A DNA stretch of 64,000 nt from a virus (taxonomy: Duplodnaviria > Heunggongvirae > Uroviricota > Caudoviricetes), in IMG/VR virus record IMGVR_UViG_3300028914_000001, positions 358,151 through 422,150 of that record; one strand, written 5' to 3'. Every line of letters begins with the position of its first letter. Position 1 is the first letter of the stretch. Under the pieces are notes generated by a model. The model did no database searches. It was not told the DNA's origin and was given only the letters and a program-made list of their open reading frames with translations. A program made the position numbers and the translations under genes. Positions 47,749 to 64,000 of this stretch are shown here, one piece after another.

Positions 47749-48027
47749 ATGAAAAAGTTTAATTTTTTCGACCCAAATGATTTCGGGAAAGTAACCCAAA
47801 GCACCCAGTACGCCGTGTACAACCGTAACCGACAGGAACTGGTTCACCGCAGAGGGGTCTGCTCTGCCGGGTTGCCACAGTTCTGGTACAATACCTATAA
47901 CCAGGCGGAAGAGCTTCTGAACGAAGCATTGAAATACTTTCCCGATAACGAAATCCTGACAATCATCAAGAAAGATGCAGTAATTACGTTCACCGATTGC
48001 ATGTCCGAGGATAAACATGAAGCCTGA
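47749..48027 (+). CDS. hypothetical protein
   Basis: GGAG RBS. Confidence 0.65.
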   Translation: MKKFNFFDPNDFGKVTQSTQYAVYNRNRQELVHRRGVCSAGLPQFWYNTYNQAEELLNEALKYFPDNEILTIIKKDAVITFTDCMSEDKHEA

Positions 48028-48517: not shown

Positions 48518-48542
48518 CAATCCGACTTTAATTGTCTATATT
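48514..48542 (+). promoter_or_regulatory. sigma70-like promoter
   Basis: TTGACA-N17-TATATT. Confidence 0.8.
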
Positions 48543-48571
48543 ACTTCCAGTAACTCAACAGGAGACTGAAC

Positions 48572-48790
48572 ATGGCAGGAAACACTATTGAATCCTCGGG
48601 AAATCCGTCGTACACTCCCCGTGACTACGAGAAGGAGAACGACCTTGGCGTGTATGTCCACTGCGTAGAACGCATGGGCCAGATTGCCGCAATAATGAAC
48701 GTGTACCCTAAGACGATGACGCTCGAACAGGTGTACGAGTCCGTCCAGTACCAACTTGAAAAATACAGAAAGCTCGTCATCGGACGATAA
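48572..48790 (+). CDS. hypothetical protein
   Basis: AGGAG RBS. Confidence 0.7.
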   Translation: MAGNTIESSGNPSYTPRDYEKENDLGVYVHCVERMGQIAAIMNVYPKTMTLEQVYESVQYQLEKYRKLVIGR

Positions 48791-48801
48791 AGGAGAAACC
48801 T

Positions 48802-49215
48802 ATGAACATTGGAGACATTTTATACATAGTTTTGCTTGTCGCATTCGTCATGACGCTGTTGTCCACCGTCCTCTACAAGCGGATGATGGTAGGCAAGGTC
48901 CAGATAATGAAGGTCGGCGATTCCTATGCGGTCAGACAGTATGCTGGCGCTAGTTCTTTCGATTACATCCGTTTCGATGAACTGCTCGACTATAAATGGA
49001 GATGGCTTTACGGAGAAAGTGTTCTGAAGACGTGCGATTTTCCAATGACGATGCCGTATGAAGAGTCCGAGCGTGTTGCCAATCTAGCCCATGCCAAGTA
49101 CCTCGAATATCGAGAAAGCAAAAGACTAGAGAAGCAAAAGGCCAAGGAAAGACGGTTGGAAAAGAAAAAGAACAAACCTGTCCTCGTCAAGAAAATATCG
49201 AGCAAGGCGGACTGA
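48802..49215 (+). CDS. membrane-anchored hypothetical protein
   Basis: AAGGAG RBS; N-terminal TM; basic tail. Confidence 0.7.
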   Translation: MNIGDILYIVLLVAFVMTLLSTVLYKRMMVGKVQIMKVGDSYAVRQYAGASSFDYIRFDELLDYKWRWLYGESVLKTCDFPMTMPYEESERVANLAHAKYLEYRESKRLEKQKAKERRLEKKKNKPVLVKKISSKAD

Positions 49216-49232
49216 GCCGAAAGAGAAACAAG

Positions 49233-50258
49233 ATGGTTAATATAGACGCTAGACAATTTTTGAAAGAAGCCCGTGAACTCCATGAAGCTGACAAAGAGCG
49301 ATTCAGGGGCGTTAAAGATGTGAGCGATGTAGTCAGGGGATGGGGTGCCAATGATTTATCGCTTGACACATTCAAGCGCACACTGTGCCGCTATACAGAC
49401 CACTCGGGCCATGTCACCAATTACCTGTGTGCCCTCCTGAATTGCAAGCCTATATCGGAACTGATTGTAGATTCCGATGCACTGGAAGGACCATGGATTG
49501 AAGAACTAAGGGCTGCCGTAAAACGGGCCAAGGCCGAATGCGACTCGTGGTGGAGCTGCCTGGACCTTGATGAAATTTATATACTAGAACTTGTGCTCAA
49601 ACATTTCGACGAAATCGTCAAGAGGTTCAAACAACGGTTTGCCGAAGAGGATGCCATCACCGAGCTTAACAGGGCGCTTCGTAAATATCCGAAGGCCAAC
49701 TGTGACGGGGAAATGGGCGCCAAGGTCAGCGAGAGCATCTCCCTGTACAATGAAATCTCCTGTACCGAGTCCGATATCGAAAAATACAAGAAGATGATTG
49801 ACATTGGCAAGACGCTCGTTACCGACAATGCCGAGCTCATGACGATGATGACTGACAATATGAACGCCCGTTCAAACCGAATTAAACAACTCGCCGATGA
49901 ACACGGTAACGCCGAAGCCAACATACGCCAAGCCCTGCTCGATGCCATGAAAGGCAAGTTCATATACTGGGACGATAGAGATACACAACACTCACGGTAC
50001 ATGCGTCTCGTTGACGTGAAAATGGATGGTTGGAGCGACAAGGATGTCTTCCTGAAAGGACCGTTAATCTACTTCGACTGGGGTGTTAAACCCAAGTTCG
50101 AGGCCGATGGTTCCGTGTATTTATCGTACATGAGCAAACTCAGCGAGAAAGTCGATTGCCTGCATGTCGTCGAAATAGACGAGCTGCTGAAAGAGGTAGA
50201 GAAACATACCCCATTCATGCTCGACTTCATCAAGAAACTTACCGAAAACATGGCATGA
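49233..50258 (+). CDS. hypothetical protein
   Basis: 341-aa ORF. Confidence 0.75.
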   Translation: MVNIDARQFLKEARELHEADKERFRGVKDVSDVVRGWGANDLSLDTFKRTLCRYTDHSGHVTNYLCALLNCKPISELIVDSDALEGPWIEELRAAVKRAKAECDSWWSCLDLDEIYILELVLKHFDEIVKRFKQRFAEEDAITELNRALRKYPKANCDGEMGAKVSESISLYNEISCTESDIEKYKKMIDIGKTLVTDNAELMTMMTDNMNARSNRIKQLADEHGNAEANIRQALLDAMKGKFIYWDDRDTQHSRYMRLVDVKMDGWSDKDVFLKGPLIYFDWGVKPKFEADGSVYLSYMSKLSEKVDCLHVVEIDELLKEVEKHTPFMLDFIKKLTENMA

Positions 50259-50261
50259 CCT

Positions 50262-51191
50262 ATGAACAAACCATTCGATAAATTGGCTTACAACGAACGG
50301 CTGCAAGAATTACGCAATCAGTATGAGTTAGCCCAGGAATCCACAAAACAGGCCGAACAGAAACTGAATGAGGCGAAGGATAACGAAAGCAAGTCCCTTG
50401 CCGACATGACCGATTTCATAAAAAAGTCGTTCGTCACTCAGCTCAAGGAATTCTTCGACGGAGCCCCCGTCGCAATCCAGGTTTACAACCACTCTAAGGA
50501 CAATGTGCTTCCGCCCGAGGATGAACCAGACATGTACGGCGTTCGCATCCTCCCAACAGTACTGCAAGAAAATGACGTGTACGTTTCCGGGGAATATGCC
50601 AGCGTCAATCCCATAAGGATGGATTTCATCGACATACATCACGGGCAACAGCCGTGGATTCAGCCTTACGATGCGTATTACCCCAGTTATACCAACATCA
50701 TCTTCCTCCCGAATGATGGTCGCTGGGTTAAATCACGTTACATCCCCGTGAAAGACTTCTCGGTAATACAGGACATCATGGAAAGGAACCGCAAACTTTA
50801 CATGGAACGCCTGGACGAGGAAATCAGCAAACTGAGAGAGCTTTGTCCGAAATATAAAGCTTATACAGCGTCATGGAAGGATTATACCTACATCTTCCTC
50901 GTAGGAAAAGACGTTATTCATATACGGTACACGACAGACACGTTTCCACATGTTCTAAAAGGAGACGATGACGACCCGTTATGGTATAGAATGCTGGAGG
51001 AGAAGTATGAACGGAAAGAGATTTCAACCGACGATGTATGCAAAAGGCTAACCAGCATCGTAAGGGGAAATTTAAAGTATTACAAGGAAACCGTGGCGAA
51101 AGCGAAAAAATGGTTCGACGACTGCGTTAAACTGGCCGAAGAACACAAGACAGAAAATGGGCCTTCATCGAGATTCCAAACTGGAAGATAA
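50262..51191 (+). CDS. hypothetical protein
   Basis: 309-aa ORF. Confidence 0.75.
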   Translation: MNKPFDKLAYNERLQELRNQYELAQESTKQAEQKLNEAKDNESKSLADMTDFIKKSFVTQLKEFFDGAPVAIQVYNHSKDNVLPPEDEPDMYGVRILPTVLQENDVYVSGEYASVNPIRMDFIDIHHGQQPWIQPYDAYYPSYTNIIFLPNDGRWVKSRYIPVKDFSVIQDIMERNRKLYMERLDEEISKLRELCPKYKAYTASWKDYTYIFLVGKDVIHIRYTTDTFPHVLKGDDDDPLWYRMLEEKYERKEISTDDVCKRLTSIVRGNLKYYKETVAKAKKWFDDCVKLAEEHKTENGPSSRFQTGR

Positions 51192-51308
51192 TCCCAGGAA
51201 GCGCCTACTCGAAATCGTAAAAATAAGTTAACATTTCACTTTTTTGCCGTCTGTCTTATCGCAGGCGGTTTTATTTTACTATATTTATCAGTAAAGAAAG
51301 GAACAAAT

Positions 51309-51803
51309 ATGAAAGCCAACACGAAACTCGAAATGGAAGACTTCAACCGAATCTGCCTGGATTGCGGCCTTGTCCCCAACGAAGCCAAGAACAAGGAATA
51401 CAACAACGAGGCAAGCTACTTTAACCTCGTCCATCCCATTTCCAAGGAACCCATCGAAGCCGCCTACTATGAAGACTTCATCGATGACGACTACAGTACA
51501 ATCCATGTAGGCGCCCACATTCGCAGCATCCTTGGATACCACTTCTCCATCATAGATACGACACGGCTCGGTATCGACGAAGAATACATCCGTCAGTCCA
51601 TCGATAAGCTCAAACATTTCCTCGACGAAGAACTCGAAGCCAGAAAGAAGACCAAGGTTCCTCTCAAAGATTTCATCGACTTCATTGCCCCCCAGCGAGA
51701 ACTGGTCAGGAACGGCCTGGTCGAACTCTCCGTCCCGGTCAGCGAGTTCATCGCCAAGCTCGGCAAAAACCCCGTACTCAAAATTGACGTAACAAAGGAG
51801 TAA
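51309..51803 (+). CDS. hypothetical protein
   Basis: AAGGA RBS. Confidence 0.7.
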   Translation: MKANTKLEMEDFNRICLDCGLVPNEAKNKEYNNEASYFNLVHPISKEPIEAAYYEDFIDDDYSTIHVGAHIRSILGYHFSIIDTTRLGIDEEYIRQSIDKLKHFLDEELEARKKTKVPLKDFIDFIAPQRELVRNGLVELSVPVSEFIAKLGKNPVLKIDVTKE

Positions 51804-51808
51804 AACCC

Positions 51809-52369
51809 ATGATTGAACTGTTCGGATGGAACGACGCTTCCAACACTGAAATACCCCTGAATAAGGAAATCTTCGCCCTGCTCCAAGACCTGACGGACCC
51901 AGAAAAACTCAGTCCTGCAGTCATCGTCGCCAAGATGATGCCAGCACGGCAACTTACATGGGTGGAAAACGACGAAGGCGATGTCCTCTGCTACGATATC
52001 CCCGCAGCCCACTTCCATTGCTGCAACGGGGCCCAAATCAAGTACTGGAAAGCCGTTGATATCCCACAGAAGCTCGACTCCTGCGTCTGCGGCGTGGTTG
52101 AAGCACCCAAGGACTGCTTCGAGGCAGAACTCGCTATTCCACCAAAACCTAAGCCAAAGCGACCTTCACCAGAAGGATACTGGAAGTTCATCCCCCACTG
52201 CTTCGCACCAGACGAATACTATGTACAGTGGAAATGCGAATGCGGCACAGTAAACCAGTTCAGAAAGACAGTCCCGGACCTCTGCACCTTCCCGGCATTC
52301 TCCGTCTACTGCACCCACTGCAACAAGAAACTTGATGTCACCTTCGATTTATCCAAGATGAACACTTGA
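51809..52369 (+). CDS. Cys-rich hypothetical protein
   Basis: AAGGAG RBS; CECG...CTHC. Confidence 0.7.
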   Translation: MIELFGWNDASNTEIPLNKEIFALLQDLTDPEKLSPAVIVAKMMPARQLTWVENDEGDVLCYDIPAAHFHCCNGAQIKYWKAVDIPQKLDSCVCGVVEAPKDCFEAELAIPPKPKPKRPSPEGYWKFIPHCFAPDEYYVQWKCECGTVNQFRKTVPDLCTFPAFSVYCTHCNKKLDVTFDLSKMNT

Positions 52370-52394
52370 CAACCAGAAAATAATTATCTATATT
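52366..52394 (+). promoter_or_regulatory. sigma70-like promoter
   Basis: TTGACA-N17-TATATT. Confidence 0.8.
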
Positions 52395-52440
52395 GTTCAT
52401 GCAAACAAATACAAACCACACATACAAAAAGGACATCCCA

Positions 52441-52917
52441 ATGAACAATTCTGCACAAAAACAGGCTATCCTCGACGCTGACAACGCCAAAGGTGACGTA
52501 CTCGACCTCATCGCCCCGATGGTATGCGACAAGTCCCGATTCACCGTCGAAAACAAGTCCGTTCAACTGAACGTGCGAAACCCGATTACCGTCGAAGGCT
52601 ATGTCTCGACCTATTTCGATGACCTGCGAATCGATTTCTGCATGCACTACAACGAAGCCCGTGACGACTTCTACGGGACCGTTCTCGTCATGCACTTCGG
52701 TGTCCACCGCAACGAAGACGGGGAAATGGACGTAAAACCGAATTGGGAACCTCTCGATTACTTCTACACCGAAGACTCGTCATGGGCCCCAATCGAGACG
52801 CTGAAGGGAATCGCCAACCATATCCTCTACGCCCTCGACATGGCCAAGGTCTATAAACAGACCGCAGAGCAGCTTGCTGACCTCAGAAAAACCTACGGCA
52901 TCGCCAAAGATGACTAA
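52441..52917 (+). CDS. hypothetical protein
   Basis: AAGGA RBS before ATG 52441. Confidence 0.7.
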   Translation: MNNSAQKQAILDADNAKGDVLDLIAPMVCDKSRFTVENKSVQLNVRNPITVEGYVSTYFDDLRIDFCMHYNEARDDFYGTVLVMHFGVHRNEDGEMDVKPNWEPLDYFYTEDSSWAPIETLKGIANHILYALDMAKVYKQTAEQLADLRKTYGIAKDD

Positions 52918-52932
52918 AAAGGAGTAAATCCA

Positions 52933-53298
52933 ATGGAAGGATACATCACCACAGCCCGTGTCGGTGACACCATCAGCATCCTGGCGACAGCATCGGGCGA
53001 CCCCTCCTGCAAGGGCAAGGAAGGAACCATCACCCAACTCGACTCCGACGGAACCATCCACGGAACATGGGGAGACATCGCCCTCCTCCATGGACGGGAC
53101 TCCTACGCCATCGTCAAGAGAGCCCCGCTCACCGACAAGGAACTGCAGACGCTTTCCCCATTCGAACGCCTGGGAATCGGAGTCCCGAACGACATATTCT
53201 ATGCCGACAGGTGCGACACCCCGACGCAATCTTCCAACTTCATCCGAATGGTCGAAGAACTCAACAAGGTAAAGACCCATGGTAGACGTAATAATTGA
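52933..53298 (+). CDS. DUF4314-like protein
   Basis: VGDTI...GKEGTI-x-QLDSDGTIHGTWG-x-IAL...D. Confidence 0.7.
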   Translation: MEGYITTARVGDTISILATASGDPSCKGKEGTITQLDSDGTIHGTWGDIALLHGRDSYAIVKRAPLTDKELQTLSPFERLGIGVPNDIFYADRCDTPTQSSNFIRMVEELNKVKTHGRRNN

Positions 53299-53530
53299 CG
53301 GCGAAGCAGCATACTGCCTCCCAGACTGCACCTGCTGCACGGCATGCCACAAGCTCATTACCGAGGTGGATGAATGCCCGTTCCCCGAACCAGACGGCCT
53401 GTGGTCAGACAAGTACAAGTGCTCCCCAGACTGCAACTACTACCAGGAAATCTGGGACGACGAAGAACTTAAAAAGGAACTCGCCCTCGACGAGGACAAA
53501 ACCCTGTTGGAACCCTTGGAGGAAACCTGA
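53279..53530 (+). CDS. small Cys-rich acidic protein
   Basis: multiple Cys; operon packing. Confidence 0.6.
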   Translation: MVDVIIDGEAAYCLPDCTCCTACHKLITEVDECPFPEPDGLWSDKYKCSPDCNYYQEIWDDEELKKELALDEDKTLLEPLEET

Positions 53531-53700
53531 TGGACTCCCCTACGCTCGTCAGCATCGCCGCAGCGAACTCATCCGTAACCAACTCGGGGTTCGGCCCAGA
53601 TGTCGCCCTAGAATTCGCACTGGTATTCTTCGTGGCGTTCCCTCTGGCCATCTACGGGTTCGGAAAACTAATCAACTTTATCGAAAAGAAACGAGGCTAA
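53530..53700 (+). CDS. small membrane protein (56 aa, not in ORF track)
   Basis: TGATG coupling; GGAGG RBS; one TM segment. Confidence 0.55.
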   Translation: MDSPTLVSIAAANSSVTNSGFGPDVALEFALVFFVAFPLAIYGFGKLINFIEKKRG

Positions 53701-53702
53701 CT

Positions 53703-53825
53703 ATGAAGATTCCAAAGTCCGAAATAAAGAAGTTCCGAAAACTCTTCTATGAAGCAGTGCAGGAAGCCCTGGCTATCCCAACCCCATGGATGGAAAAGGC
53801 GTTCCCCGGATGGAAAAACGGCTGA
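53703..53825 (+). CDS. small hypothetical protein
   Basis: GAGG RBS before MKIPK. Confidence 0.5.
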   Translation: MKIPKSEIKKFRKLFYEAVQEALAIPTPWMEKAFPGWKNG

Positions 53826-53855
53826 TTTCTAACCATAAACAAAAAGAGGTACAAA

Positions 53856-54092
53856 ATGAAAGTAAAAGAACTCATCGAAAAACTCCAAAAGCTCAACCCC
53901 GAACTCGAAATCGTGGGCTACGAATCCGACATGGAACGCTCGGGTATCGAACCCGTCAACGTATATCCCCGTGTACAGAAGTTCAAGACCGAAAAACGCT
54001 CCACATGGGACCGCTTCGACGGCACGGACTATACCTACACGAGATACGTCGAAGACCCGAACGGCCCTATCGAAGCCGTCAGACTCTGGTAA
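53856..54092 (+). CDS. hypothetical protein
   Basis: MKVKELIEKLQ N-terminus; GAGG RBS. Confidence 0.75.
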   Translation: MKVKELIEKLQKLNPELEIVGYESDMERSGIEPVNVYPRVQKFKTEKRSTWDRFDGTDYTYTRYVEDPNGPIEAVRLW

Positions 54093-54098
54093 GGCCCG

Positions 54099-54368
54099 AT
54101 GAAACCGAATCCCCTCTACCAAAAGGTCACCAAGAACCTCAAACTCGACAAGGACACCTGCTCCTGGGCAAAGGACTTCTTCGCCGCTTCCCACAGGAGC
54201 AAGGCCGGACTTCTCGACGACGCCATCGAAAGCTACTCCGACGGCGTCCCCCGCCATATATTCAACAAGCACCTCGAAGACGATGCCGGGAAAATAACCA
54301 GCTTCACCACCATGCGTGAACTGCTCCTCTATATCTCCCAAGTGGCCGACTCCGAAGGCTTCTTCTAA
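54099..54368 (+). CDS. hypothetical protein
   Basis: operon packing. Confidence 0.65.
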   Translation: MKPNPLYQKVTKNLKLDKDTCSWAKDFFAASHRSKAGLLDDAIESYSDGVPRHIFNKHLEDDAGKITSFTTMRELLLYISQVADSEGFF

Positions 54369-54392
54369 CCCCCAAACTGAATCAGGTTAACC

Positions 54393-55061
54393 ATGGAACA
54401 TCTCACTTACGTCAAAGAAGACTTCCCGGACGGATGGAAGGAAACCCCGTTCGAACTGCTTTTCAAACGCCTCGAAGAAAACGGGTTCAAAACCACCAAT
54501 CAAGGGGAATTGTCGGCAAACGAAATGGTCATGGACGCCAGACCGCACTCCGACCTGTATAAAATCGAAAAGGACGGAAGATGCTTCTCGTTCGTCCTCA
54601 ATGCCACCACAAACCTCCGCAACGGGGCCGAACTCCTGGATTCTATCGGAGGCTTCAAAAACATATCCAATAAAATCAACAAGCGGGTCGAGTTCGAAAT
54701 CCCCCCAGACAGGGACGTGGACGGAAAATGCGCCGCTGTCGAATACTGGGTCAGAGACCTCGTCAACTACTTCTATGGAAGACCCGTCGAAAAACGAAAG
54801 TTCGATACCGAAAAATGGGATAAAATCCGTAGAGAAGAATACGCCGAACTCAAAGCGAAATCCGACGCCAGATGGAACGACTACCTCAAACACCCAGACA
54901 AGTACTCCGGCCCTCCACCTAGAATCGTCGAACCCCAGCTCTACCCCAATACCATCGTGGGAGTCATCCCCATATCCAAACCACAAGGCCTCGCCTTCGC
55001 CCTCAAATTCCTGGATACAGAACCCCTGTCTAAAACCCTCCTACGTAAAGGCAAGAAATGA
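54393..55061 (+). CDS. hypothetical protein with a C-terminal gp23-like motif
   Basis: IVGVIPISKPQGLAFALK. Confidence 0.7.
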   Translation: MEHLTYVKEDFPDGWKETPFELLFKRLEENGFKTTNQGELSANEMVMDARPHSDLYKIEKDGRCFSFVLNATTNLRNGAELLDSIGGFKNISNKINKRVEFEIPPDRDVDGKCAAVEYWVRDLVNYFYGRPVEKRKFDTEKWDKIRREEYAELKAKSDARWNDYLKHPDKYSGPPPRIVEPQLYPNTIVGVIPISKPQGLAFALKFLDTEPLSKTLLRKGKK

Positions 55062-55306
55062 ACAAGGACGAAATCTTCCAGTACCTCCTCTCCCACGGCT
55101 TCACCCGGAAAGACAACGAATTCAGGAAGGATATCCTAGTCGCCAGACATAACGAGGAAAAGAACAGACTCGAAGTCCTCTATGACATCGGTGAAAAACT
55201 CCCCGTCTACTGGTACTACGATATCCTCAAAGACTTCAACCCAAACGCCATCGACTCCTACTTCAATAACCTATATGACGCCATCAAGACATTTGACGAA
55301 CAATGA
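55058..55306 (+). CDS. hypothetical protein
   Basis: ATGA overlap. Confidence 0.65.
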   Translation: MNKDEIFQYLLSHGFTRKDNEFRKDILVARHNEEKNRLEVLYDIGEKLPVYWYYDILKDFNPNAIDSYFNNLYDAIKTFDEQ

Positions 55307-55838
55307 TATCGACCCCCTGCTCCAAGAAAGCAGGAACGCCTTCATCCATGAACAGGATTGCAAACTGAGCGAACAACTCAGGGTGTCCGCCGTTACCCAG
55401 ACTTTCACAGTCCAGATGACAGAAGCCTGCGAAAAGTTCTCCCACCTGATAGAAGAAATCCTCCAATACAAGAAATTCTTCCGCCTAAGGTTCAGCTTCT
55501 TTCCCAGAAGCATCGTCCTCGAAGTACAACCCTACTGGGGAAAATCCTCCTGGTCCTTCCACCCCCTCAGATACGGAATCGAGGATTTCTACCATTTCGC
55601 ATCCTGCATTATACAGAAGGACGAGAACGGCCTGTTCAAACCCTATATGGAAATACTCAGTAACGGATACGTCGTATCGGGCAAGGGAAAAGTCTGCAAC
55701 GACGGTTTCAAATACCTCAAATACTTCACAAAGAAATATACCCACAAGTGGATGGAAAAGGCCCTCAGGAAAGAACTGAAACGCTGCATCGCAAACAAAA
55801 GGCTCGAATCCGATGCCCGTGTCGATGCCGTCTCCTAA
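55275..55838 (+). CDS. hypothetical protein (start uncertain)
   Basis: last ORF before the non-coding block. Confidence 0.65.
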   Translation: MTPSRHLTNNDIDPLLQESRNAFIHEQDCKLSEQLRVSAVTQTFTVQMTEACEKFSHLIEEILQYKKFFRLRFSFFPRSIVLEVQPYWGKSSWSFHPLRYGIEDFYHFASCIIQKDENGLFKPYMEILSNGYVVSGKGKVCNDGFKYLKYFTKKYTHKWMEKALRKELKRCIANKRLESDARVDAVS

Positions 55839-55839
55839 C

Positions 55840-56345
55840 CAGGGATGAAACCCCCCACCCCCAAAAATTTTTTTCAAACCCCATACCCCCCTACCAAAAA
55901 TTTTTTAAAGGGGGAGGGGGCGCCTTTAAATATTTTTTTCTATTTTTCTGCCCCCAGTTTTGCATTTTGATTTTTTGACTGGGTGTTCATATCATGTTGA
56001 TATCATGTTGATAAGTTGTGCGTTTCATTTTGAAACATTGTTGACATCATGTTAGCAAGGTGTTGAGTCGCTGGTTGCAAGCCCGTGGTGTGAGCTGGGT
56101 GTGCAAGCTGTGTTCAGAACCTGGGTTGCAAGCTGTGTTCAGAACCTGGGTTGCAACTCCTGTTCTGAACCCCTGTTCTGAACCCCTGTTCTGAACCCCT
56201 GTTCTGAACCTGGGTTGCAACTCCTGTTCTGAACCCCTGTTCTGAACCATGTATTTTTAAAAAATAAAAAGTACCTGGCTTATCAAATATCAAATTAGCC
56301 TAGGCTAATACCCTATACGGGCCACCCCCTAAAACGACCCCTCAC
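55840..56345. other. non-coding control block: candidate replication origin or genome terminus
   Basis: C/G homopolymer and A/T tracts, iteron-like repeats, strand-composition switch. Confidence 0.5.
56095..56248. repeat. array of 8 GTTCWGAAC palindromes interleaved with TTGCAA
   Basis: copies at 56112, 56137, 56162, 56175, 56188, 56201, 56226, 56239 (13- and 25-bp periods). Confidence 0.9.
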
Positions 56346-56390
56346 GCTCAACATGGGTTATCACCCCCAACGGTGTGGAGCTGGGGGAAG

Positions 56391-56408
56391 TATACCACCC
56401 TATATTAA
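56391..56408 (+). promoter_or_regulatory. type-B promoter box TATACCACCCTATATTAA (also at 58951, 60256, 61451)
   Basis: four identical 18-mers, 43-44 bp after the motif start; contain the TATATT -10 but no TTGACA. Confidence 0.7.
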
Positions 56409-56455
56409 GGGTTGTCCCGAGGCAATGAAGCCAAGGGAAAACTATCGGAGTTGAT

Positions 56456-57754
56456 ATGTTCAAAACAAGAATGACGCCAAAGCAACTCAACGAATACGCT
56501 GATTTGGTTCGTTGTGTTAAGGGTAAGGAAGTTGTCCACACTATTAAGGGCATTGCCTTGGAGGGTGCTCCGGGCATGGGAAAAACCGCCTGCATTAGGG
56601 CTATTGCTAAGCGTTGGGAACAGCCTTGCATCACTGTCAGCATTAACCAGTGGGTTAATGCGGCTGATATTGTCGCCTACTCCTACAAGGGCTACAAGGA
56701 CGACCATGGCAACTTTGAACTTGCAGGTGAGGATGAAATCCCCCCTTGGCTCCCCGTTTATCGCATTGACCCAACGGACGTTACCAAACGAGTCAAGACA
56801 ACAGACTCCACAAAGGGCTTCAAGGTTTGGAGGGACAAAAAGACGGGTCAATTTGAGGCTCATCCGGCGGTGATTTTGTTGGATGAATTTTCAGCAGCTC
56901 GTCCTTCCGTTCAAGCAGCATTTTTGTGCGTTTCGCTTGACAGGGTGGTTAAAAATTTCAAACTTGACAATGATACCACTTTCTTCTTGGCTTTCAACTC
57001 TTGCGAACGTGCGGGATTTGAAATGCAAAATAATGAAATTTCTGATGCACTCGTCGGTCCGAACGGGCGTTTCGATTGCATCGAACTCATTTTTGAAGCG
57101 AAAGCGGTCATTGATTGCGTTCAGGCTAATCCGAACATTTCAACTTTTTGGAAAATGTTTACCAAAAAGGTTTTGAAAAGTTTGAAATTAGTGGACGATA
57201 ACGACCCGAACGATTACAATTCGTGCGGAAGAACTTGGGAAAATCTCATGGTTCTTTTGAGCAACGGAAATTTTGACTCCAAGAATTTCCCGTCTTTTGC
57301 TGAAATGTTGGTAAAAATGAACTTTGCTACTTCTGAAAAGCTTGCAGCACAGGTAATTACCGCAATCAAAAACTTCGATATTCCTACGGGTGAGGATTTT
57401 TTGAACGGAACCGCTGAAATTAAGACATTTTCCGATGCCATAATTGCAGTGAACGCAATCGGTATTACTTTGGGATTTAGAAAGAAGTCCAACGAACAAG
57501 TAATTTCCATGACGGAACAGGATAAACTTCATTCAATTCTCGATGCTCATTATCCGACAGGCATGAAACATGCCGATGGAACTCCGATTATCGGAAGCAA
57601 TAAAGAATTGTATATGGTTATGAAAAGCACGTTGCTCAGGGAAAATTTGGAAAATAACCTCGAATTTACCTTTGTTGCCGATGCGATTGATAACTTCGAT
57701 AATGAAGATAACGGAAATTCTTCCGACGAAAATGAGGAAGATATCCAATTCTAA
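56456..57754 (+). CDS. second MoxR-like AAA+ ATPase
   Basis: GAPGMGKT, ILLDEFS, LAFN, GRF, CGRTWE; GGAG RBS. Confidence 0.85.
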   Translation: MFKTRMTPKQLNEYADLVRCVKGKEVVHTIKGIALEGAPGMGKTACIRAIAKRWEQPCITVSINQWVNAADIVAYSYKGYKDDHGNFELAGEDEIPPWLPVYRIDPTDVTKRVKTTDSTKGFKVWRDKKTGQFEAHPAVILLDEFSAARPSVQAAFLCVSLDRVVKNFKLDNDTTFFLAFNSCERAGFEMQNNEISDALVGPNGRFDCIELIFEAKAVIDCVQANPNISTFWKMFTKKVLKSLKLVDDNDPNDYNSCGRTWENLMVLLSNGNFDSKNFPSFAEMLVKMNFATSEKLAAQVITAIKNFDIPTGEDFLNGTAEIKTFSDAIIAVNAIGITLGFRKKSNEQVISMTEQDKLHSILDAHYPTGMKHADGTPIIGSNKELYMVMKSTLLRENLENNLEFTFVADAIDNFDNEDNGNSSDENEEDIQF

Positions 57755-57783
57755 AAAGGGGAGCGAAAGCTCCCTTTTCTTTT
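57753..57783 (+). terminator. intrinsic terminator
   Basis: GGGAGC-GAAA-GCTCCC-TTTT. Confidence 0.8.
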
Positions 57784-57814
57784 CTCTTTAACTCAAACAA
57801 AAAGGAATAAAACC

Positions 57815-57898
57815 ATGGCTAAAAACACAATTAAAATCCCTAACACTTGGAAGATTTCCGCCTCCAAATTGGGCTTGAAAATCTATCGCAAAAAGTAA
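57815..57898 (+). CDS. 27-aa basic peptide, copy 1 (not in ORF track)
   Basis: MAKNTIKIPNTWKISASKLGLKIYRKK; AAGGA RBS. Confidence 0.75.
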   Translation: MAKNTIKIPNTWKISASKLGLKIYRKK

Positions 57899-57915
57899 GG
57901 GAAAAATCACTCCGA

Positions 57916-57942
57916 AAGGGGAGCCGAAAGGCTCCCTTTTTT
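57916..57942 (+). terminator. intrinsic terminator
   Basis: GGGAGCC-GAAA-GGCTCCC-TTTTTT. Confidence 0.85.
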
Positions 57943-58028
57943 ATTTGCCGCCACAGAGTTTTAACTTAGGTTATCACCCCTTTTCTGGCGAAAGCTTCGG
58001 AATAATCCAGCCTTTTCTGTTTCTCTTT

Positions 58029-58046
58029 TGTAAACTAGAATTTACA
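58029..58046. promoter_or_regulatory. TGTAAA-N6-TTTACA palindromic operator (variants at 59702, 62629, 63413)
   Basis: four copies 8 or 20 bp upstream of the -35 of cassette promoters. Confidence 0.6.
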
Positions 58047-58128
58047 CAAAAGCCTTATTCAGTTTCTTTTAATTATGTATATTTATAGGGTGCTTAATGT
58101 TGAGCATTTTAAATAGGAGTCCATAAAT

Positions 58129-58212
58129 ATGGCTAAAAACACAACTAAAATCCCTAACACTTGGAAGATTTCCGCATCTAAATTAGGCTTGAAGATTTAC
58201 CGCAAAAAGTAG
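58129..58212 (+). CDS. 27-aa basic peptide, copy 2 (not in ORF track)
   Basis: MAKNTTKIPNTWKISASKLGLKIYRKK; AGGAG RBS. Confidence 0.75.
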   Translation: MAKNTTKIPNTWKISASKLGLKIYRKK

Positions 58213-58220
58213 GTTTTAAA

Positions 58221-58412
58221 ATGAGTTTAACTAAATTTGATACCATGGGCTTGAAAGTAGGTGATAAAATCCGTATCATTGAAATGATAGGGGAACCACA
58301 ATATAACGGAAAAGAGGGAACCATAGAACAAATTGACGATATAGGGCAAATACATGGCTCTTGGGGTGGTCTAGCACTCCAAGCAGATAGGGACAAGTGG
58401 GAACGGATTTAA
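58221..58412 (+). CDS. DUF4314-like protein
   Basis: VGDKIRIIEM...GKEGTIEQIDDIGQIHGSWGGLAL...D. Confidence 0.8.
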   Translation: MSLTKFDTMGLKVGDKIRIIEMIGEPQYNGKEGTIEQIDDIGQIHGSWGGLALQADRDKWERI

Positions 58413-58436
58413 ACCTAGTTCATCCTAGTTCAGAAT

Positions 58437-58462
58437 AGGCACCCAACGAGGTGCCTTTTTTT
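58437..58462 (+). terminator. intrinsic terminator
   Basis: AGGCACC...GGTGCCT followed by a T-run. Confidence 0.8.
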
Positions 58463-58479
58463 CTGAGTAACTCAGGGTT

Positions 58480-58925
58480 CCAACATAGGTTATCACCCTT
58501 CTGCCGCTGGAGGCAGTCCCATTCAGACGAGTGCCTGTTGGGTTTGATAAAATTCCTGTTGGATATCCTGCGAGTTCGATTCTTTTTCCCGTTCTCAACA
58601 TAGGTTATCACCCTTATCCTGTCTTTCGAAAGGGGGGGTAGCCCATTCACGAGTGCCACGACCAAGCACCAGGTTTGATTTTCTATCCAGTCAGTGTTTC
58701 AACATGGGTTATCGCCCCTAACCGTGGCTGCCCCGGTGAAGGTCGTGGGGCACGAGTTGCTACGGTTACCCCAACCAAGGAGTTCGATAGCCCTGACGCC
58801 ATTACCCCTGAGTTCAACATGGGTTATCACCCCCTACCCGTGATTCGAAAGGGGGGCGTCAGGCTACCCTCGTAGTGCCACTTGACCTTGGTTGCCTTCC
58901 CGAGTTCCAACATAGGTTATCACCC
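58480..58925 (+). repeat. five motif copies with four gene-free spacers (96, 85, 96, 74 bp)
   Basis: repeat-spacer layout with a 219-bp higher-order period. Confidence 0.85.
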
Positions 58926-59016
58926 TCTGGCAGCTGGAGTCGGGGCGGAATATACCACCCTATATTAAGGGTTGTCCCAAGGCAATGAAGCCAAGGGAAA
59001 ACTAGGAGTTGTTACA

Positions 59017-59568
59017 ATGGATATCAATGTTACTCTCACCGTCAAGGGGTTCCCCTTGTTTGTTGAGCCGAGTGCGTTAAAAGTGAGCGGCAAGCTTGAA
59101 AACTATCGCCATATTCTTGCGAGGTTTGCCAGCAATATCTGGTGGCATCTTAACCTGTGCCGTCCCTATGGCATCAAGACTGACATATCTGCATATACTA
59201 AGCAAATTGACCGCAAGGGTCATGCAGCTATTAGAAAGGTATTCACCATTGATGAAGGTATGCCGACATTCGATAGTGTAGTTGATTATTGCGTTGATTT
59301 GTTTACGATGATGCTTCACTTATATGAACCTGTTGAGTTTGCGGATAACTTGTGCGAGTCACCTTGGTTTCTTGCTATTGAATCGTTCCAACACTATAAA
59401 CGTTTTTGGGAAGGTCACTTCATTACTGATAACGCATATGTATACCTGCAATCAATAAAAGAAGGTTTGAAAGATAATATTTTCTTTGATAAATCTTTTG
59501 CGGAAACTATTGTTTCTTCTATGATTCTTGACAAACAATATTCTATGGCTAATCTTATTAAAAAGTAA
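59017..59568 (+). CDS. hypothetical cassette protein
   Basis: AGGAG RBS before ATG 59017. Confidence 0.75.
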   Translation: MDINVTLTVKGFPLFVEPSALKVSGKLENYRHILARFASNIWWHLNLCRPYGIKTDISAYTKQIDRKGHAAIRKVFTIDEGMPTFDSVVDYCVDLFTMMLHLYEPVEFADNLCESPWFLAIESFQHYKRFWEGHFITDNAYVYLQSIKEGLKDNIFFDKSFAETIVSSMILDKQYSMANLIKK

Positions 59569-59584
59569 AGTTAATCTTCTCGTT

Positions 59585-59616
59585 AAGGTTTAACCCTCTT
59601 GGGTTAAACCTTTTTT
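59585..59616 (+). terminator. reused terminator T1 (also at 60771 and 61981)
   Basis: AAGGTTTAACCC-TCTT-GGGTTAAACCTTTTTT; three near-identical copies. Confidence 0.85.
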
Positions 59617-59727
59617 ATTTTTATCCGAGGGGTTTCAACATGGGTTATCACCCTATCCTGCCGGAGTCGAGCGACGAGGCTGCCTCGGTCAGGGTGGGTT
59701 TTGTTTACAGAAGTTTACATAAATGGT

Positions 59728-59756
59728 TTGGCAAACTGAATTTAATTAGGTATATT
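59728..59756 (+). promoter_or_regulatory. cassette sigma70-like promoter (type A)
   Basis: TTGGCA-N17-TATATT. Confidence 0.75.
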
Positions 59757-59781
59757 TATTTAATAAACTGCGAGGTGAAAA

Positions 59782-60159
59782 ATGAAATTCATAGACAAAA
59801 CCAAATGGAAAACTTTTAAGGCTGAAAAGCCGAAAGTGGGCGAATACATTTATATGATACCGCCAAAGGGAAAATCCTCTATCTTCGGCAAATATGAAGG
59901 TGGCGATTACATCTACGAAGAAGAAGGCTTTTGGGGAAAGAATGTCAAGTTTAAGCCTAATTGGTTATGGATAACTTTAAAGGACTATGAGAAGATGGAA
60001 CGGGAGTTCTACGAGAACCTAGCCAAGGTATCTATCAGCGACCTCGTTACTACCCTTGTCCGCAAGGTCATTACCCAGCACTTGTCTTGCGATAGTAATA
60101 GCTGCTTGTTTTGGGATGGGCGAAACGAGTTCGGTGCAGATAAAGACGAAGACAATTAA
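59782..60159 (+). CDS. hypothetical cassette protein
   Basis: GAGGTG RBS. Confidence 0.75.
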   Translation: MKFIDKTKWKTFKAEKPKVGEYIYMIPPKGKSSIFGKYEGGDYIYEEEGFWGKNVKFKPNWLWITLKDYEKMEREFYENLAKVSISDLVTTLVRKVITQHLSCDSNSCLFWDGRNEFGADKDEDN

Positions 60160-60322
60160 CATAATCCCCTGCCTGCAAAGGTTGGGGTTTCTCTTTGCTC
60201 CTCGCCGAGTTCCAATATAGGTTATCACCCTTCTGCCGCTGGAGCCGGGGCGGAATATACCACCCTATATTAAGGGTTGTCACGAGGCGATGTTGCCTCG
60301 GACAATTCAACGGAGTTGAACT

Positions 60323-60748
60323 ATGATTATGAACACTGGCGTTACGGTCGATGTTGAAAGCGACCTTTACAAGAAAGCGGTTGAACTTTGCAAGGGCATT
60401 GAAGTCCATTATGACAAGCAGTTCACTATCCCCTTCCCTAAGCAAGAAGTAGATACGGGCTGTGGCAAGTCCAAGTGCGATGCTTTGATGATGGACGTGA
60501 GCTATCGCAAGGCGGGGCGTAGTCTGTATAGCGGTGATACCTATCCCTCTTGCTACTACCTCAGCATTGTGCCCGTTGAACTAACTCCGCACGGATATAC
60601 CTGCCTGATGTTCGGTGGGGGCAACTGTATCATCAACGAGTGCAACCGCAACACGGCTAAGCAACAGGGGCTTGCGGCAAAGGCGGTTCAGAACGAGCTT
60701 GTGGACATTGTTTACAAAGCGTTCATCAAGTTTGGCGTGAAGTTCTAG
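60323..60748 (+). CDS. hypothetical cassette protein
   Basis: GGAG RBS. Confidence 0.75.
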   Translation: MIMNTGVTVDVESDLYKKAVELCKGIEVHYDKQFTIPFPKQEVDTGCGKSKCDALMMDVSYRKAGRSLYSGDTYPSCYYLSIVPVELTPHGYTCLMFGGGNCIINECNRNTAKQQGLAAKAVQNELVDIVYKAFIKFGVKF

Positions 60749-60900
60749 GATTTAACAACTCCGAAAACAAAAGGTTTAATCCTCTTGGGTTAAACCTTTT
60801 TTATTTTTTTCTTTGCGATATCAACATGGGTTATCACCCTATCCTGACGGGCTCGACCGACGGGTCATCTTCATTCGGAGCGACGAAAATAATTTTTCTA

Positions 60901-60929
60901 TTGACAAACTAGATTTAATTATGTATATT
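60901..60929 (+). promoter_or_regulatory. cassette sigma70-like promoter (type A)
   Basis: TTGACA-N17-TATATT; identical 29-mer at 62114. Confidence 0.85.
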
Positions 60930-60956
60930 TTTATAATAGAACGAAAGGGGTATTAT

Positions 60957-61352
60957 ATGGCACGAAAAAAGACAACTGAATACATCGCAACGGAACTGAA
61001 CTTAGATATGCTAGATAGCATAGTAGGTTCATTGAATAACATTGCAAATTCTTTGAGGGAAACTTACGATACCTCCGAGATTTATATTGCTTTGCGTGGG
61101 CTACATCGCTTTTCCGAGCACGGATTTGAAAAGATACTAGACCATGAGGGTCATTTCAAGTTCACTATGGTCTGTAAGGCACTCCCTCTACCGCCTACAC
61201 GCAGACGAAAGGTCTATGAGTATAGGTTTAGGGCTAATACCTACACGAACGATATCACTTGCATAGACGAGCATAACAACGAGTGGGCTATGCCCTTGCT
61301 GACGGACTCATTGGAAGTCATTAGGGAAAAAATACTTCAAGTGGTTGGCTGA
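60957..61352 (+). CDS. hypothetical cassette protein
   Basis: AGGGG RBS before ATG 60957. Confidence 0.75.
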   Translation: MARKKTTEYIATELNLDMLDSIVGSLNNIANSLRETYDTSEIYIALRGLHRFSEHGFEKILDHEGHFKFTMVCKALPLPPTRRRKVYEYRFRANTYTNDITCIDEHNNEWAMPLLTDSLEVIREKILQVVG

Positions 61353-61508
61353 TTAGTGGGCGGTTCCAATAAAGGTTCCGCCCTTTTGCTTGCCCGCCAC
61401 GGACATTCAACATGGGTTATCACCCTCTGGCAGCTGGAGTCGGGGCGGAATATACCACCCTATATTAACGGGCATAAGAAAGGGTAGAAACCCTTTGAGG
61501 AGTTGAAT

Positions 61509-61949
61509 ATGGAAACCTTAGCTGACATCGTAAAGAAATACAACCCTATTATCTGTGTAGAGGACATAGTTGATTACATCAAGAAGAAGAACCCTCGTTG
61601 GTTCAAGTCCTCGTGGGAAAAGCTAGGCGTTATCCCAGTGAACAACGCTGGCTATCCGTTGGGTATAGAAACGGTATCGGAAGGTAACGAAGACTCTTGC
61701 TCCTGTGGCTTCCGTAAGATGTTCAAGCTCATGTTCTCTAAACGCAAGTATTACACTGCGACCTACTTCGTGGTGGTTCACAACCACCCTAGCGGCAATA
61801 CCGAGCCGAGCTTGAAGGACATCAAGCTGACCCGTGATATCATAGGTGCAGGCAAGCTCTTGGAGTTCCCCCTAGTTGACCATATCATCATCAGTCCATT
61901 GGGAAGTTATTACTCTACCTGCCGAGTCCACCCGGATTGGTTTGAATAA
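61509..61949 (+). CDS. RadC-like JAB domain protein
   Basis: VHNHPSG-x-EPS-xx-D...LVDHIII; GAGGAG RBS. Confidence 0.85.
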   Translation: METLADIVKKYNPIICVEDIVDYIKKKNPRWFKSSWEKLGVIPVNNAGYPLGIETVSEGNEDSCSCGFRKMFKLMFSKRKYYTATYFVVVHNHPSGNTEPSLKDIKLTRDIIGAGKLLEFPLVDHIIISPLGSYYSTCRVHPDWFE

Positions 61950-62113
61950 AAATTTTTTATTAACAACTCCGATACAAACAAAGGTTTAACCCTCCTGGGT
62001 TAAACCTTTTTTATTTTTATCCGAGGGGGATTCCAACATAGGTTATCACCCTCTGCTGTCTGGAGTCGTCGTTCCCCCGGTCTGACGACAGCGATAATTT
62101 TTTCTAATAAGCC

Positions 62114-62142
62114 TTGACAAACTAGATTTAATTATGTATATT
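62114..62142 (+). promoter_or_regulatory. cassette sigma70-like promoter (type A)
   Basis: TTGACA-N17-TATATT. Confidence 0.85.
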
Positions 62143-62168
62143 ATTGATACATAAACGAGAGGTATCAA

Positions 62169-62249
62169 ATGGCACGCAAACCGACAAACAAAGACAAGAT
62201 TTCAGCTATCAAAATGGGCTTACGCATTTATAAGGGGAGCAAGAAATGA
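62169..62249 (+). CDS. 26-aa basic peptide, divergent homolog of the 57815/58129 peptides
   Basis: MARKPTNKDKISAIKMGLRIYKGSKK; GAGG RBS. Confidence 0.7.
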   Translation: MARKPTNKDKISAIKMGLRIYKGSKK

Positions 62250-62356
62250 AACTCTTTTTATTTATCATTCTTGTTCTGCTTGGAGTGTTCTATCCTCCTA
62301 TTACAATTCTCTACTCTATCATCGGACTAATCGTTTTAGTAAGGAAATTGGCATAA
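62246..62356 (+). CDS. 36-aa hydrophobic membrane peptide
   Basis: MKLFLFIILVLLGVFYPPITILYSIIGLIVLVRKLA; ATGA overlap; GGAG RBS. Confidence 0.6.
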   Translation: MKLFLFIILVLLGVFYPPITILYSIIGLIVLVRKLA

Positions 62357-62484
62357 TGAAAAAGTTTCTGCTCTATATCAAGAACGAAAAAGGTATCTAC
62401 GAGGAAACTGCAATCGGCTACTTCAAAGACCTACTGCCGTTGAGCTTTGGGCGGACGGCTAGGTTCGAGTGTTTGGGTAAGTAG
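62356..62484 (+). CDS. 42-aa hypothetical peptide
   Basis: TAATG coupling; followed by a terminator. Confidence 0.55.
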   Translation: MKKFLLYIKNEKGIYEETAIGYFKDLLPLSFGRTARFECLGK

Positions 62485-62505
62485 TCATCGCAGGGTATAT
62501 GGAGT

Positions 62506-62540
62506 TCCCCTAGGGTTCAACCCTAGGGGTTTTCTTTTTT
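62506..62540 (+). terminator. intrinsic terminator
   Basis: CCCCTAGGGTT-C-AACCCTAGGGG followed by T-rich tail. Confidence 0.8.
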
Positions 62541-62666
62541 CGTCGCCCCGATATTCAACATGGGTTATCACCCTCCGCCTGCTGGAGGCGTGCGTCGGTC
62601 ATCAGGCGTGGCTTGTCATCAGGCGGTTTGTAAACGAATGTTTACGCAGAAAGTTTCTTATGGGTA

Positions 62667-62695
62667 TTGACAAAATGGATTTAATTGGGTATATT
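62667..62695 (+). promoter_or_regulatory. cassette sigma70-like promoter (type A)
   Basis: TTGACA-N17-TATATT. Confidence 0.85.
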
Positions 62696-62721
62696 ATTAT
62701 ATATAAAACGGAGGTTTCACA

Positions 62722-62847
62722 ATGCAGACCGAGAAAGAAAAGGGATTTATCCATAGCTTTATAGAGGGCTTGGGAGTTCTTGTAGCATATTGCATGGTCT
62801 TCTACTTCTTGTGGGAAGGCTTGTTAGCCTACCTAGGGATTAAGTAA
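62722..62847 (+). CDS. 41-aa membrane peptide (not in ORF track)
   Basis: GGAGG RBS; MQTEKEKGFIHSFIEGLGVLVAYCMVFYFLWEGLLAYLGIK. Confidence 0.65.
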   Translation: MQTEKEKGFIHSFIEGLGVLVAYCMVFYFLWEGLLAYLGIK

Positions 62848-62858
62848 GGGGGTATATC

Positions 62859-63266
62859 ATGAACATTGAAATAGACGAAAATGTATATAACGCTTTGCTC
62901 GCTGACATTAAGCCGAGCGTAGTCTTCACGAGAGAGGAAGCGGAGCTTTACTGCAAGGACTATGTAACCGTGTTCCGCAAAGAGTCGCATAGGGGCTTTG
63001 CTATCCCCTTGAAAGTATCCGATATAGACAAGGCTGAGTCTTTCGTGGTTACTGACAATGTTACTGAAAACGAAAATGAAAAAGAACTCGGAGCTGTGCG
63101 TTGCGATACGCTTGCAGAAGCTATCAACGCAATGGTAAACGGAGTAGAGGGCAAGACAGAAGTTACATTCTATACGGAGCTTTGTGCTGACTTCGGTTCT
63201 GTTATAGAGGGGGTTGCTCGTTGGTCGCACCCGGCTCGTTATTCTGACGGGAAACAATGGAGTTAA
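62859..63266 (+). CDS. hypothetical cassette protein
   Basis: AAGGGGG RBS. Confidence 0.75.
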   Translation: MNIEIDENVYNALLADIKPSVVFTREEAELYCKDYVTVFRKESHRGFAIPLKVSDIDKAESFVVTDNVTENENEKELGAVRCDTLAEAINAMVNGVEGKTEVTFYTELCADFGSVIEGVARWSHPARYSDGKQWS

Positions 63267-63450
63267 TATAATATCCTCATCGTGAAACCTAGGGTTGCGG
63301 ACGACTGTTCGCAGCCCTTCTTTCTGGTCGCCCCGTGGTTTCAACATAGGTTATCACCCCTAACCAGAAAGCCCGCCGTCGGAGTCGTCTGGGTTCTGGC
63401 GGCTTGCCGTCATGTAACCGAATGTTTACACAAAAAGTTAGGTAGAGGGC

Positions 63451-63479
63451 TTGACAAAATGGCTTTAATTAGGTATATT
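63451..63479 (+). promoter_or_regulatory. cassette sigma70-like promoter (type A)
   Basis: TTGACA-N17-TATATT. Confidence 0.85.
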
Positions 63480-63504
63480 ATAAGCAACAACGAAAGAGGT
63501 TATT

Positions 63505-63876
63505 ATGCAGACTTTCAAAAAGAAATGGCAAGGGTTCAACTTCACTGAAAGCGGAACTAGAATGGGTCCTAACGGGAAGAGCTTGGCTCGCTCGTTCCAC
63601 AACCTTATGAAAAGGGTTTGTGCGAAGATTGGTGCAAAGGTGGTGCGTGCTGAAACGGGTCACTACTATGTCTTTGGGTTCATTCAGCGTAAGGACGGCT
63701 CGCTCGTCTACTACAACTATGGCGACTTCCGTGGCATGACTATTGATGTAGCCAACTGCGACTGCATGCATGGCGTATTGCTCCGCACGGCAACTAGCAC
63801 AACGGACTACACAGGCGGTCACAACAATTTCAGCTCCATAGCCGATTTGGAAACAAAGATACCGCAAATTAGATAA
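63505..63876 (+). CDS. hypothetical phage protein
   Basis: GAGG RBS; GHYY-x-FGF...DFR...LLRTA...DYTGG-x-NNF pattern. Confidence 0.8.
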   Translation: MQTFKKKWQGFNFTESGTRMGPNGKSLARSFHNLMKRVCAKIGAKVVRAETGHYYVFGFIQRKDGSLVYYNYGDFRGMTIDVANCDCMHGVLLRTATSTTDYTGGHNNFSSIADLETKIPQIR

Positions 63877-63896
63877 AAAATTTAGTCACCTCCGTT

Positions 63897-63927
63897 GATG
63901 GCAGACCTTGGGTCTGCCATCTTTTTT
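63897..63927 (+). terminator. intrinsic terminator
   Basis: GATGGCAGACC-TTG-GGTCTGCCATC-TTTTTT. Confidence 0.85.
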
Positions 63928-64000
63928 GCCTCGCCCCGTGGTTTCAACATAGGTTATCACCCTCCGCCAGCGGCTGCCAGTCCCCTGCTGCCTCGTTCCG

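Follow-up and report, generated by a model that had tools for sequence, protein, structure and literature searches.

The virus record IMGVR_UViG_3300028914_000001 (422 kb; genome G000 here) is complete and closed by a 110-bp assembly overlap. Its final 64 kb (positions 358,151 to 422,150) end in an array of small-gene units punctuated by a 19-bp motif. We refined the consensus of this motif to YCAACWTRGGTTATCACCC, with a weak GATTT directly 5' of it, and refer to the whole 64-kb stretch as the window. From its sequence context we read the motif, with a probability of about 0.55, as a directional, stoperator-like protein-binding site that insulates tandem strong promoters. A sequence-specific protein would bind the 19-mer and so punctuate about 40 tandem strong early promoters. 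When bound, it would act as a roadblock that halts RNA polymerase on the U-tract of the terminator before it, against read-through or post-termination sliding. It would also face the promoter that follows from a constant side of the helix, so that each unit could be insulated and expressed or switched as a block. What is new here is the geometry, and no description of such a motif system was found in the literature searched. The array would amount to a naturally occurring design, replicated 46 times, by which strong promoters in tandem are kept insulated, and its exact geometry is testable in a reporter without culturing the phage.

Invariance and placement of the motif

A sequence scan of the window placed 15 copies of the motif between 56348 and 63962, all on the + strand, with starts at 56348, 57961, 58480, 58595, 58699, 58814, 58907, 59635, 60212, 60821, 61407, 62033, 62555, 63341 and 63944. 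By chance, 0.12 copies would be expected. The first 56 kb held none, and the scan thus bore out the copies, strand and empty first part reported in a first-pass annotation that a model had made from the letters alone. Its remark that the array runs off the end of the window was also right: past the assembly join there are 31 further copies (G000 666-32,946), so that the whole genome holds 46 unique copies, all on the + strand, from 414,498 across the wrap to 32,946 and within about 40.5 kb (about 41.4 kb including the elements that bracket the motif span). No copy was found elsewhere in G000, and a search of the minus strand allowing 3 mismatches was empty as well. The annotation had named a genome-wide spread, like that of an ordinary operator, as evidence against its own idea of a crossover site; the copies are instead confined to one segment of about 41 kb.

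Motif arrays were also present in G001, G003, G004 and many metagenome contigs, with 679 copies in 75 related sequences that overlap partly. Sixteen motif positions were near-invariant (96-100%), while positions 1, 6 and 8 drifted with a genome-specific preference. The 16 positions were kept across lineages in which four-fold sites were only 62% identical, neighboring bases were hypervariable, and the conserved span around the motif was about 25 bp, in one orientation in all copies. Cultured phages gave no motif match, and lone matches in G002 and in unrelated genomes, being chance-like and without terminator-promoter context, were rejected. A structured hairpin within the motif was likewise rejected (only a 3-4-bp stem, with the outer pair often broken), and Rfam and tRNA searches within the array found nothing.

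Within a unit, the order described in the first-pass annotation, i.e., motif, GC-rich spacer, promoter, ribosome-binding site (RBS), genes and terminator, held, but its distance of 10 to 25 bp between terminator and next motif did not, and the promoters proved to be of two types. The motif began 24-25 nt after the stem end of the terminator in 297 of 378 junctions. Across 467 distinct junctions this distance was 24.5±1.0 nt, with linkers 49% identical and T-runs of 2-8, and none of 61 terminators outside the array carried a motif. In fused units, internal promoters lacked terminator, motif and GC flank, all three together. The 3' end of a terminated RNA lies 7-8 nt beyond the terminator stem. 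In the array, this puts the expected 3' end 16-17 nt upstream of the motif, or 12-13 nt if counted from the GATTT edge, near the 14 nt at which EcoRI-Gln111 roadblocks stop RNA polymerase (PMC5499547); roadblocks also halt post-termination sliding (PMC11364550). By this 14-nt rule, the spacing would place the motif where a roadblock could hold polymerase on the U-tract.

On the downstream side, the distance from the motif to the -35 box peaked at 51, 62-63, 72-73 and 82-83 nt, and this phasing (R=0.55 at 10.25 bp, n=167 dereplicated) exceeded all 20,000 jitter nulls. Within one orthologous unit, the motif-to-promoter distance changed by about 10. Indels on the right side of the motif persisted mostly in steps of about 10 bp, and on the left side there were hardly any. 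The type II box was found 23-24 or 32-34 nt downstream of the motif only, two spacings 10 nt apart, and nowhere else in the genome. A fixed distance to the terminator and helical phasing to the promoter are together the usual signature of a bound protein, and the annotation's alternative proposal, a binding site organizing the region, fits this geometry.

The closest functional counterpart would be the stoperators of cluster A mycobacteriophages, of which there are >20, asymmetric, intergenic, oriented along transcription and proposed to halt RNA polymerase when bound (PMC9283540). The motif shares their asymmetry, intergenic location, orientation with transcription and high copy number. Stoperators, however, are 13-mers bound by the immunity repressor of temperate phages and spread genome-wide, whereas the motif is 19 bp long, confined to one segment and coupled to intrinsic terminators, in a genome where profile searches gave no integrase match and did reveal HTH_39 and SpoVG-like genes.

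The binder might be one of these two array-encoded proteins, or whatever binds the repeats of the boundary elements described below. A SpoVG-like gene, at 10,732-11,073 in G000, lies in the array of 4/4 motif-bearing phages and 0/2 motif-less relatives, its product has a structure match (E=4e-10), and SpoVG proteins bind DNA site-specifically (PMC3688583). We take it as a lead, drawn from one clade contrast, and the HTH_39 protein, encoded at G000 24,935-25,426, as a second candidate. An imperfect palindrome, TGTAAAC...GTTTACA, was also seen in the window at 58031-58046, 59704-59719, 62629-62646 and 63413-63430; 239 units have its TTTACA, and in 218 of them it precedes the -35 box by 25-26 nt. 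It is likely a second operator, and either candidate protein could read this element instead.

Several observations weigh against a bound insulator. The terminator hairpins look strong (z about -3), so that a roadblock is not obviously needed. The counts behind the phasing are phylogenetically non-independent, and about 39 copies of the type I sigma70-like promoter beyond the array do without a motif. No terminator precedes the first motif copy or the four gene-less units, and the latter also lack a clear promoter. The SpoVG-like distribution comes from 6 related genomes in two clades and is one evolutionary contrast. In-register gene conversion, finally, could help to keep the spacings uniform.

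Traces compatible with conversion are present in the flanks. The four flank-sharing pairs listed in the first-pass annotation are all real: copies 63341 and 63944 have 13 nt in common on the left, 58480 and 60212 have 14 nt and 58907 and 61407 have 43 nt on the right, and 59635 and 62033 match across terminator and linker but for a small gap. More generally, flank sharing was higher among units of one genome than across genomes and likewise higher for near neighbors, and flank words held a fixed register to the motif. In close orthologues, divergence of the GC-rich right flank outpaced that of four-fold sites by a factor of 2-2.5, which was not seen in the pairs closest of all. The simplest cause of this pattern may be ectopic conversion between two anchors of homology. 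Such conversion among junctions could even have kept uniform a motif without a function of its own, a relic of ancestral unit duplication, and the flank sharing, the fixed register and the genome-specific preference at the variable positions agree with this. We nevertheless regard a relic as quite unlikely, given that under the same conversion 16 positions stayed near-invariant across lineages next to hypervariable bases, and that indels are kept in 10-bp steps on one side only.

A role at the promoter itself was considered from two relatives outside the motif-bearing clade, G007 and G008. Both carry a multipart element (ACTG, GGCGGG(A/G)CTGCC or CGGGTTTCCCC, TAT, TATAC) on one strand and at a fixed distance before the RBS, with about 64 copies at 232,000-297,000 of G008 (L257-L260) and about 17 at 342,000-355,392 of G007 (L281). 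These are probably promoters for phage sigma factors, which both genomes encode. The motif could play the same role, as an upstream activator site or phage-type promoter core: the type II boxes lack TTGACA and resemble the TAT-N5-CTATA part of the element, and the GGG of the motif lies 36 or 46 nt before CTATA, vs 26 in G007 and G008. However, type II units make up only 5-6 of 45, the G008 profile fails to match the flanks, proteins with sigma region 4 were found in G007 and G008 and not in the motif-bearing clade, and the terminator spacing would be left unexplained. Insofar as it is distinct from the protein-binding insulator, with which it overlaps, we consider this reading very improbable.

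Gain, loss and movement of units

The first-pass annotation had favored a crossover site for site-specific cassette exchange, integron- or pdif-like, and had proposed that relatives be compared for gain, loss or reordering of cassettes with breakpoints in the motif. Whole units were indeed gained, lost and in a few cases moved, but the backbone order was conserved through all arrays, which are largely though not wholly syntenic, and clean breakpoints fell mostly outside the motif. With informative sites, breakpoints could be mapped cleanly in 12 rows, of which 8 lay in the promoter/RBS, 3 in the motif and 1 in the flank; as three of the promoter rows are one event, this corresponds to 6, 3 and 1 of 10 events. 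Shared homology alone predicted 4.7 of the 12 in the motif, vs the 3 observed. In the closest genome pairs, large indels lay at -42, +3 and +125 relative to a motif. Some rearrangements do break cleanly in the motif (G001:18 vs L065, L067:4), the 19-mer is invariant, and a host recombinase could be involved. Moreover, in 52 of 53 homologous pairs sharing the left flank only, identity ended no more than 4 nt from the right edge of the motif, an observation that also follows from the divergence of the flank even between orthologues.

The annotation had also called for a genome search for recombinases. Profile searches of G000 were negative for PF00589, PF02899, PF00239, PF07508, PF01548, PF01797, PF00078, PF01844, PF01541, PF08299 and PF00521; tyrosine, serine, IS110 and Y1 recombinases and reverse transcriptase were not found, and neither were HNH, GIY-YIG, DnaA and topoisomerase II matches, although remote folds can be missed because these were profile searches. 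The all-Pfam scan covered the open reading frames other than 16 that span locus borders and a small number of great length. A single serine resolvase was present, in G004 only. The lack of a reverse transcriptase match in G000 also sets the array apart from diversity-generating retroelements. With order mostly conserved, most clean breakpoints in the promoter/RBS and no recombinase family in the G000 profiles, a dedicated crossover site appears unlikely.

In integron arrays and XerCD/pdif modules, units are separated by a repeated site. The array resembles them as a one-direction series of unrelated single-gene units with a repeated site and with RadC, DUF932 and DUF2958-type cargo. It differs in having no integrase, attC fold or dif geometry, in its own promoters per unit and in its conserved order. 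An attC is a long imperfect palindrome that folds when single-stranded, and the fold of the flanks here was unremarkable (z about -0.3). The conserved span of about 25 bp in one orientation shows neither the 6-bp spacer nor the 11-6-11 dyad of a pdif site, which is 28 bp long and alternates in orientation; one arm of the motif resembles that of XerD. The first-pass annotation had named both systems as analogues and had the motif match neither.

Its comparison with the promoter-early stem-loops (PeSLs) of T4-type phages (PMC2839356, PMC4122927) was apt for the shuffling. As in PeSLs, a T4-superfamily phage carries composite terminator-promoter-RBS blocks repeated between small orphan early genes, and relatives differ by unit indels with crossovers in promoter/RBS homology; PeSL crossovers occur downstream of the -10 box and ahead of the start codon (PMC2839356). 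The motif itself has no PeSL counterpart: PeSLs lack an extra invariant word, whereas in G000 a 19-mer stands at exact spacing between terminator and promoter, and the units make up a single array of about 41 kb, on one strand and bracketed by conserved elements. The best explanation for the gain, loss and movement of units is that they are a by-product of homologous recombination between repeated terminator-motif-promoter blocks, as for PeSLs; the phage itself encodes a RecA-like protein. PeSL-type shuffling can thus ride on a site kept for another purpose, and the array is PeSL-like in shuffling and probably stoperator- or insulator-like in function, belonging to neither integrons nor pdif modules.

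Boundary elements of the segment

The motif span is bracketed by two elements. The left one (55840-56347) is a non-coding sequence that relatives have kept; it contains A-tracts, T(T/A)TCAAC-type repeats on the reverse strand and a tandem repeat of 12-14 bp. The right one (L015:12965-13610, G000 32,965-33,610) has converging T(T/A)TCAAC arrays at an 11-12-bp period (11-13 copies vs 0.4 expected) around an AT-rich core, and is closed by a degenerate, inverted copy of the motif. In the left element of G000 the T(T/A)TCAAC enrichment was weaker. The motif itself resembles two boundary repeat units placed head-to-tail, 13 bp apart. Tested against the DnaA box TT(A/T)TNCACA within one base, the motif halves had 2-3 mismatches, with a consensus that may not be that of the host.

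At the right element, GC skew turned from about -0.23 to +0.2 and decayed over about 6-9 kb in three genomes, and to the left of the left element it was negative and building up, a pattern that suggests origins; the right element looks origin- or injection-stop-like by sequence. As separate observations, four-fold sites turned C-rich and T-poor on the coding strand toward the boundaries, fading over several kb (window 48000-55840; G000 about 20,000-44,000), and the 12-14-bp tandem repeat (window 56071-56248) differed by 64 bp between the otherwise identical assemblies G000 and L177, its unit sequence varying between lineages.

These elements raise the possibility that the motif is a DNA-transaction signal (for nicking, replication priming, or ejection and anchoring), read by the protein of the boundary repeats and organizing a T5-like terminal repeat or first-injected segment of about 40 kb. 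The head-to-tail resemblance and the skew flip would suit such a signal, as would a bracketed span of 37.6-41 kb in G000, G001 and G003 and about 39 kb in the distant G008, about 9% of the molecule. Motif spacing also grows along the array (rho 0.75-0.83), the flanks diverge faster than four-fold sites, the iss of T5 has similar boxes (10.1101/866236, an in-silico preprint), and long terminal repeats occur in T4-related jumbo phages (PMC5259590, PMC5852040). On its own, however, this reading leaves the fixed terminator distance and the promoter phasing unexplained. The HNH, GIY-YIG, Y1, DnaA and topoisomerase II searches of G000 reported above speak against it, and contigs end in the boundaries only 6 times, vs about 19 spanning them. 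G008 (terminase 71-75%) also has similar elements about 39 kb apart, with slight sequence similarity to those of G000. It shares the skew pattern and has homologous cargo but lacks the motif, and its genes lie behind the different repeated element described above. From G008 we infer that the segment is old and the motif a clade-specific addition. We hold the DNA-transaction reading to be rather unlikely.

That the segment is a long terminal repeat or is injected first is plausible by analogy. Like the terminal-repeat host-takeover regions of SPO1, T5 (first-step transfer, with iss), CBB and XacN1, it takes up about 9% of the genome, has dense host-type promoters and small genes, and ends in non-coding sequence rich in repeats, with TTATCAACA-type boxes. 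It differs in its per-unit invariant site, of which the available portions of the descriptions of those regions make no mention (PMC5259590, PMC5852040, 10.1101/866236), and its own terminal repeat is only putative. Tentatively, the insulator and the segment might be joined: a protein, possibly SpoVG-like, could bind the 46 phased sites both as a terminator-coupled insulator and as organizer of a first-delivered segment of about 40 kb, using the same recognition unit as the end elements and thereby linking transcription punctuation to DNA entry or replication.

Phage, cargo and units in the window

G000 encodes gp23, a T4-type terminase, gp15, a family B polymerase, a RecA-like protein and 38 tRNA genes, which identify it as a T4-superfamily jumbo phage. 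A TnsA-like nuclease in the genome is presumably a T4 gp4-type head-completion nuclease. The best named relative of its thymidylate synthase comes from Fibrobacteraceae (82%), and Fibrobacter is tentatively the host; from the sample series, we take the habitat to be the rumen. Contigs L163, L165, L166 and L169-L172 of this phage group are binned in two Bacteroidales metagenome-assembled genomes, a placement that promoter and RBS style argue to be mis-binning. A 514-aa protein (L188:7748-9289), labeled a compact family A-like polymerase, is 33% conserved in G007 and G008.

GATC and CGCG have zero occurrences outside the array, and among many 6-bp palindromes absent or nearly so genome-wide are ACTAGT, CCCGGG, CGGCCG, GCCGGC, CTCGAG and TCCGGA. 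This avoidance points to a host with many restriction systems. A restriction-decoy role of the GC-rich flanks was rejected, as the avoided words (GATC, CGCG, CCCGGG, CTCGAG and others) are missing from the G000 flanks too, and the correlation was positive.

By profile searches, the array cargo comprises AAA+, DUF4314, RadC, DUF2958, DUF932, DUF1281_C, GP88, SpoVG-like and HTH_39 proteins, and the majority has no family. The AAA+, DUF4314 and RadC labels of the first-pass annotation were confirmed by these searches, and its view of an early, host-takeover-type array is supported. The array provides a list of about 70 early genes, most without known function (RadC, DUF932, DUF2958 and SpoVG-like among them), which are likely host-takeover or anti-defense factors of a phage of a probable fiber-degrading rumen bacterium.

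All features of the array in the window lie on the + strand. Behind the first motif copy, a GC-rich flank and type II box (ATACCACCCTATATTAA, -10-like and without TTGACA) occupy 56367-56408, with further boxes at 58958, 60263 and 61458. They are followed by a MoxR-like AAA+ ATPase (56456-57754), the first cargo in every array covering the left end, and a 27-aa basic micropeptide (57815-57898; paralogues 58129-58212 and 62169-62249). Such 26-27-aa basic micropeptides, without a Pfam match, occur about 3 per genome in most arrays covering the left end. The intrinsic terminator ahead of motif 57961 lies at 57918-57945, and equivalent hairpins at about 58437, 59585, 60166, 60769, 61980, 62507, 63291 and 63897 have the same 24-25 nt from stem end to motif. 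The DUF4314 protein (58221-58412) precedes the four gene-less units (58480-58925), which are lineage-specific and 115, 104, 115 and 93 bp long. Those of two relatives measure 116/104/115/95 and 117/105/114/96 bp, so that lengths fall at 93-96, 104-105 and 114-117 bp, about 9-11 helical turns, with one exception of 141 bp.

Next come a 183-aa orphan (59017-59568), in a variable unit found in 2/16 arrays, and a type I promoter, TTGACA-17-TATATT (59728-59756; others at 60901, 62114, 62667 and 63451). The 125-aa orphan behind it (59782-60159) is a mobile unit found at three different array positions, with a breakpoint mapped to the promoter region. Two conserved single-gene units (141 and 131 aa; 60323-61352) are followed by a RadC-like JAB protein (61509-61949), likewise variable and in 2/16 arrays, and by units encoding micropeptides and small membrane proteins, together with a variable gene of 135 aa and a conserved one of 123 aa (62169-63876). 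Whole-unit lengths showed no helical phase. Unit length grew along the array, starting at about 0.5-0.6 kb and reaching 2-3 kb (rho 0.75-0.83), with a cluster of unrelated units at 575-625 bp.

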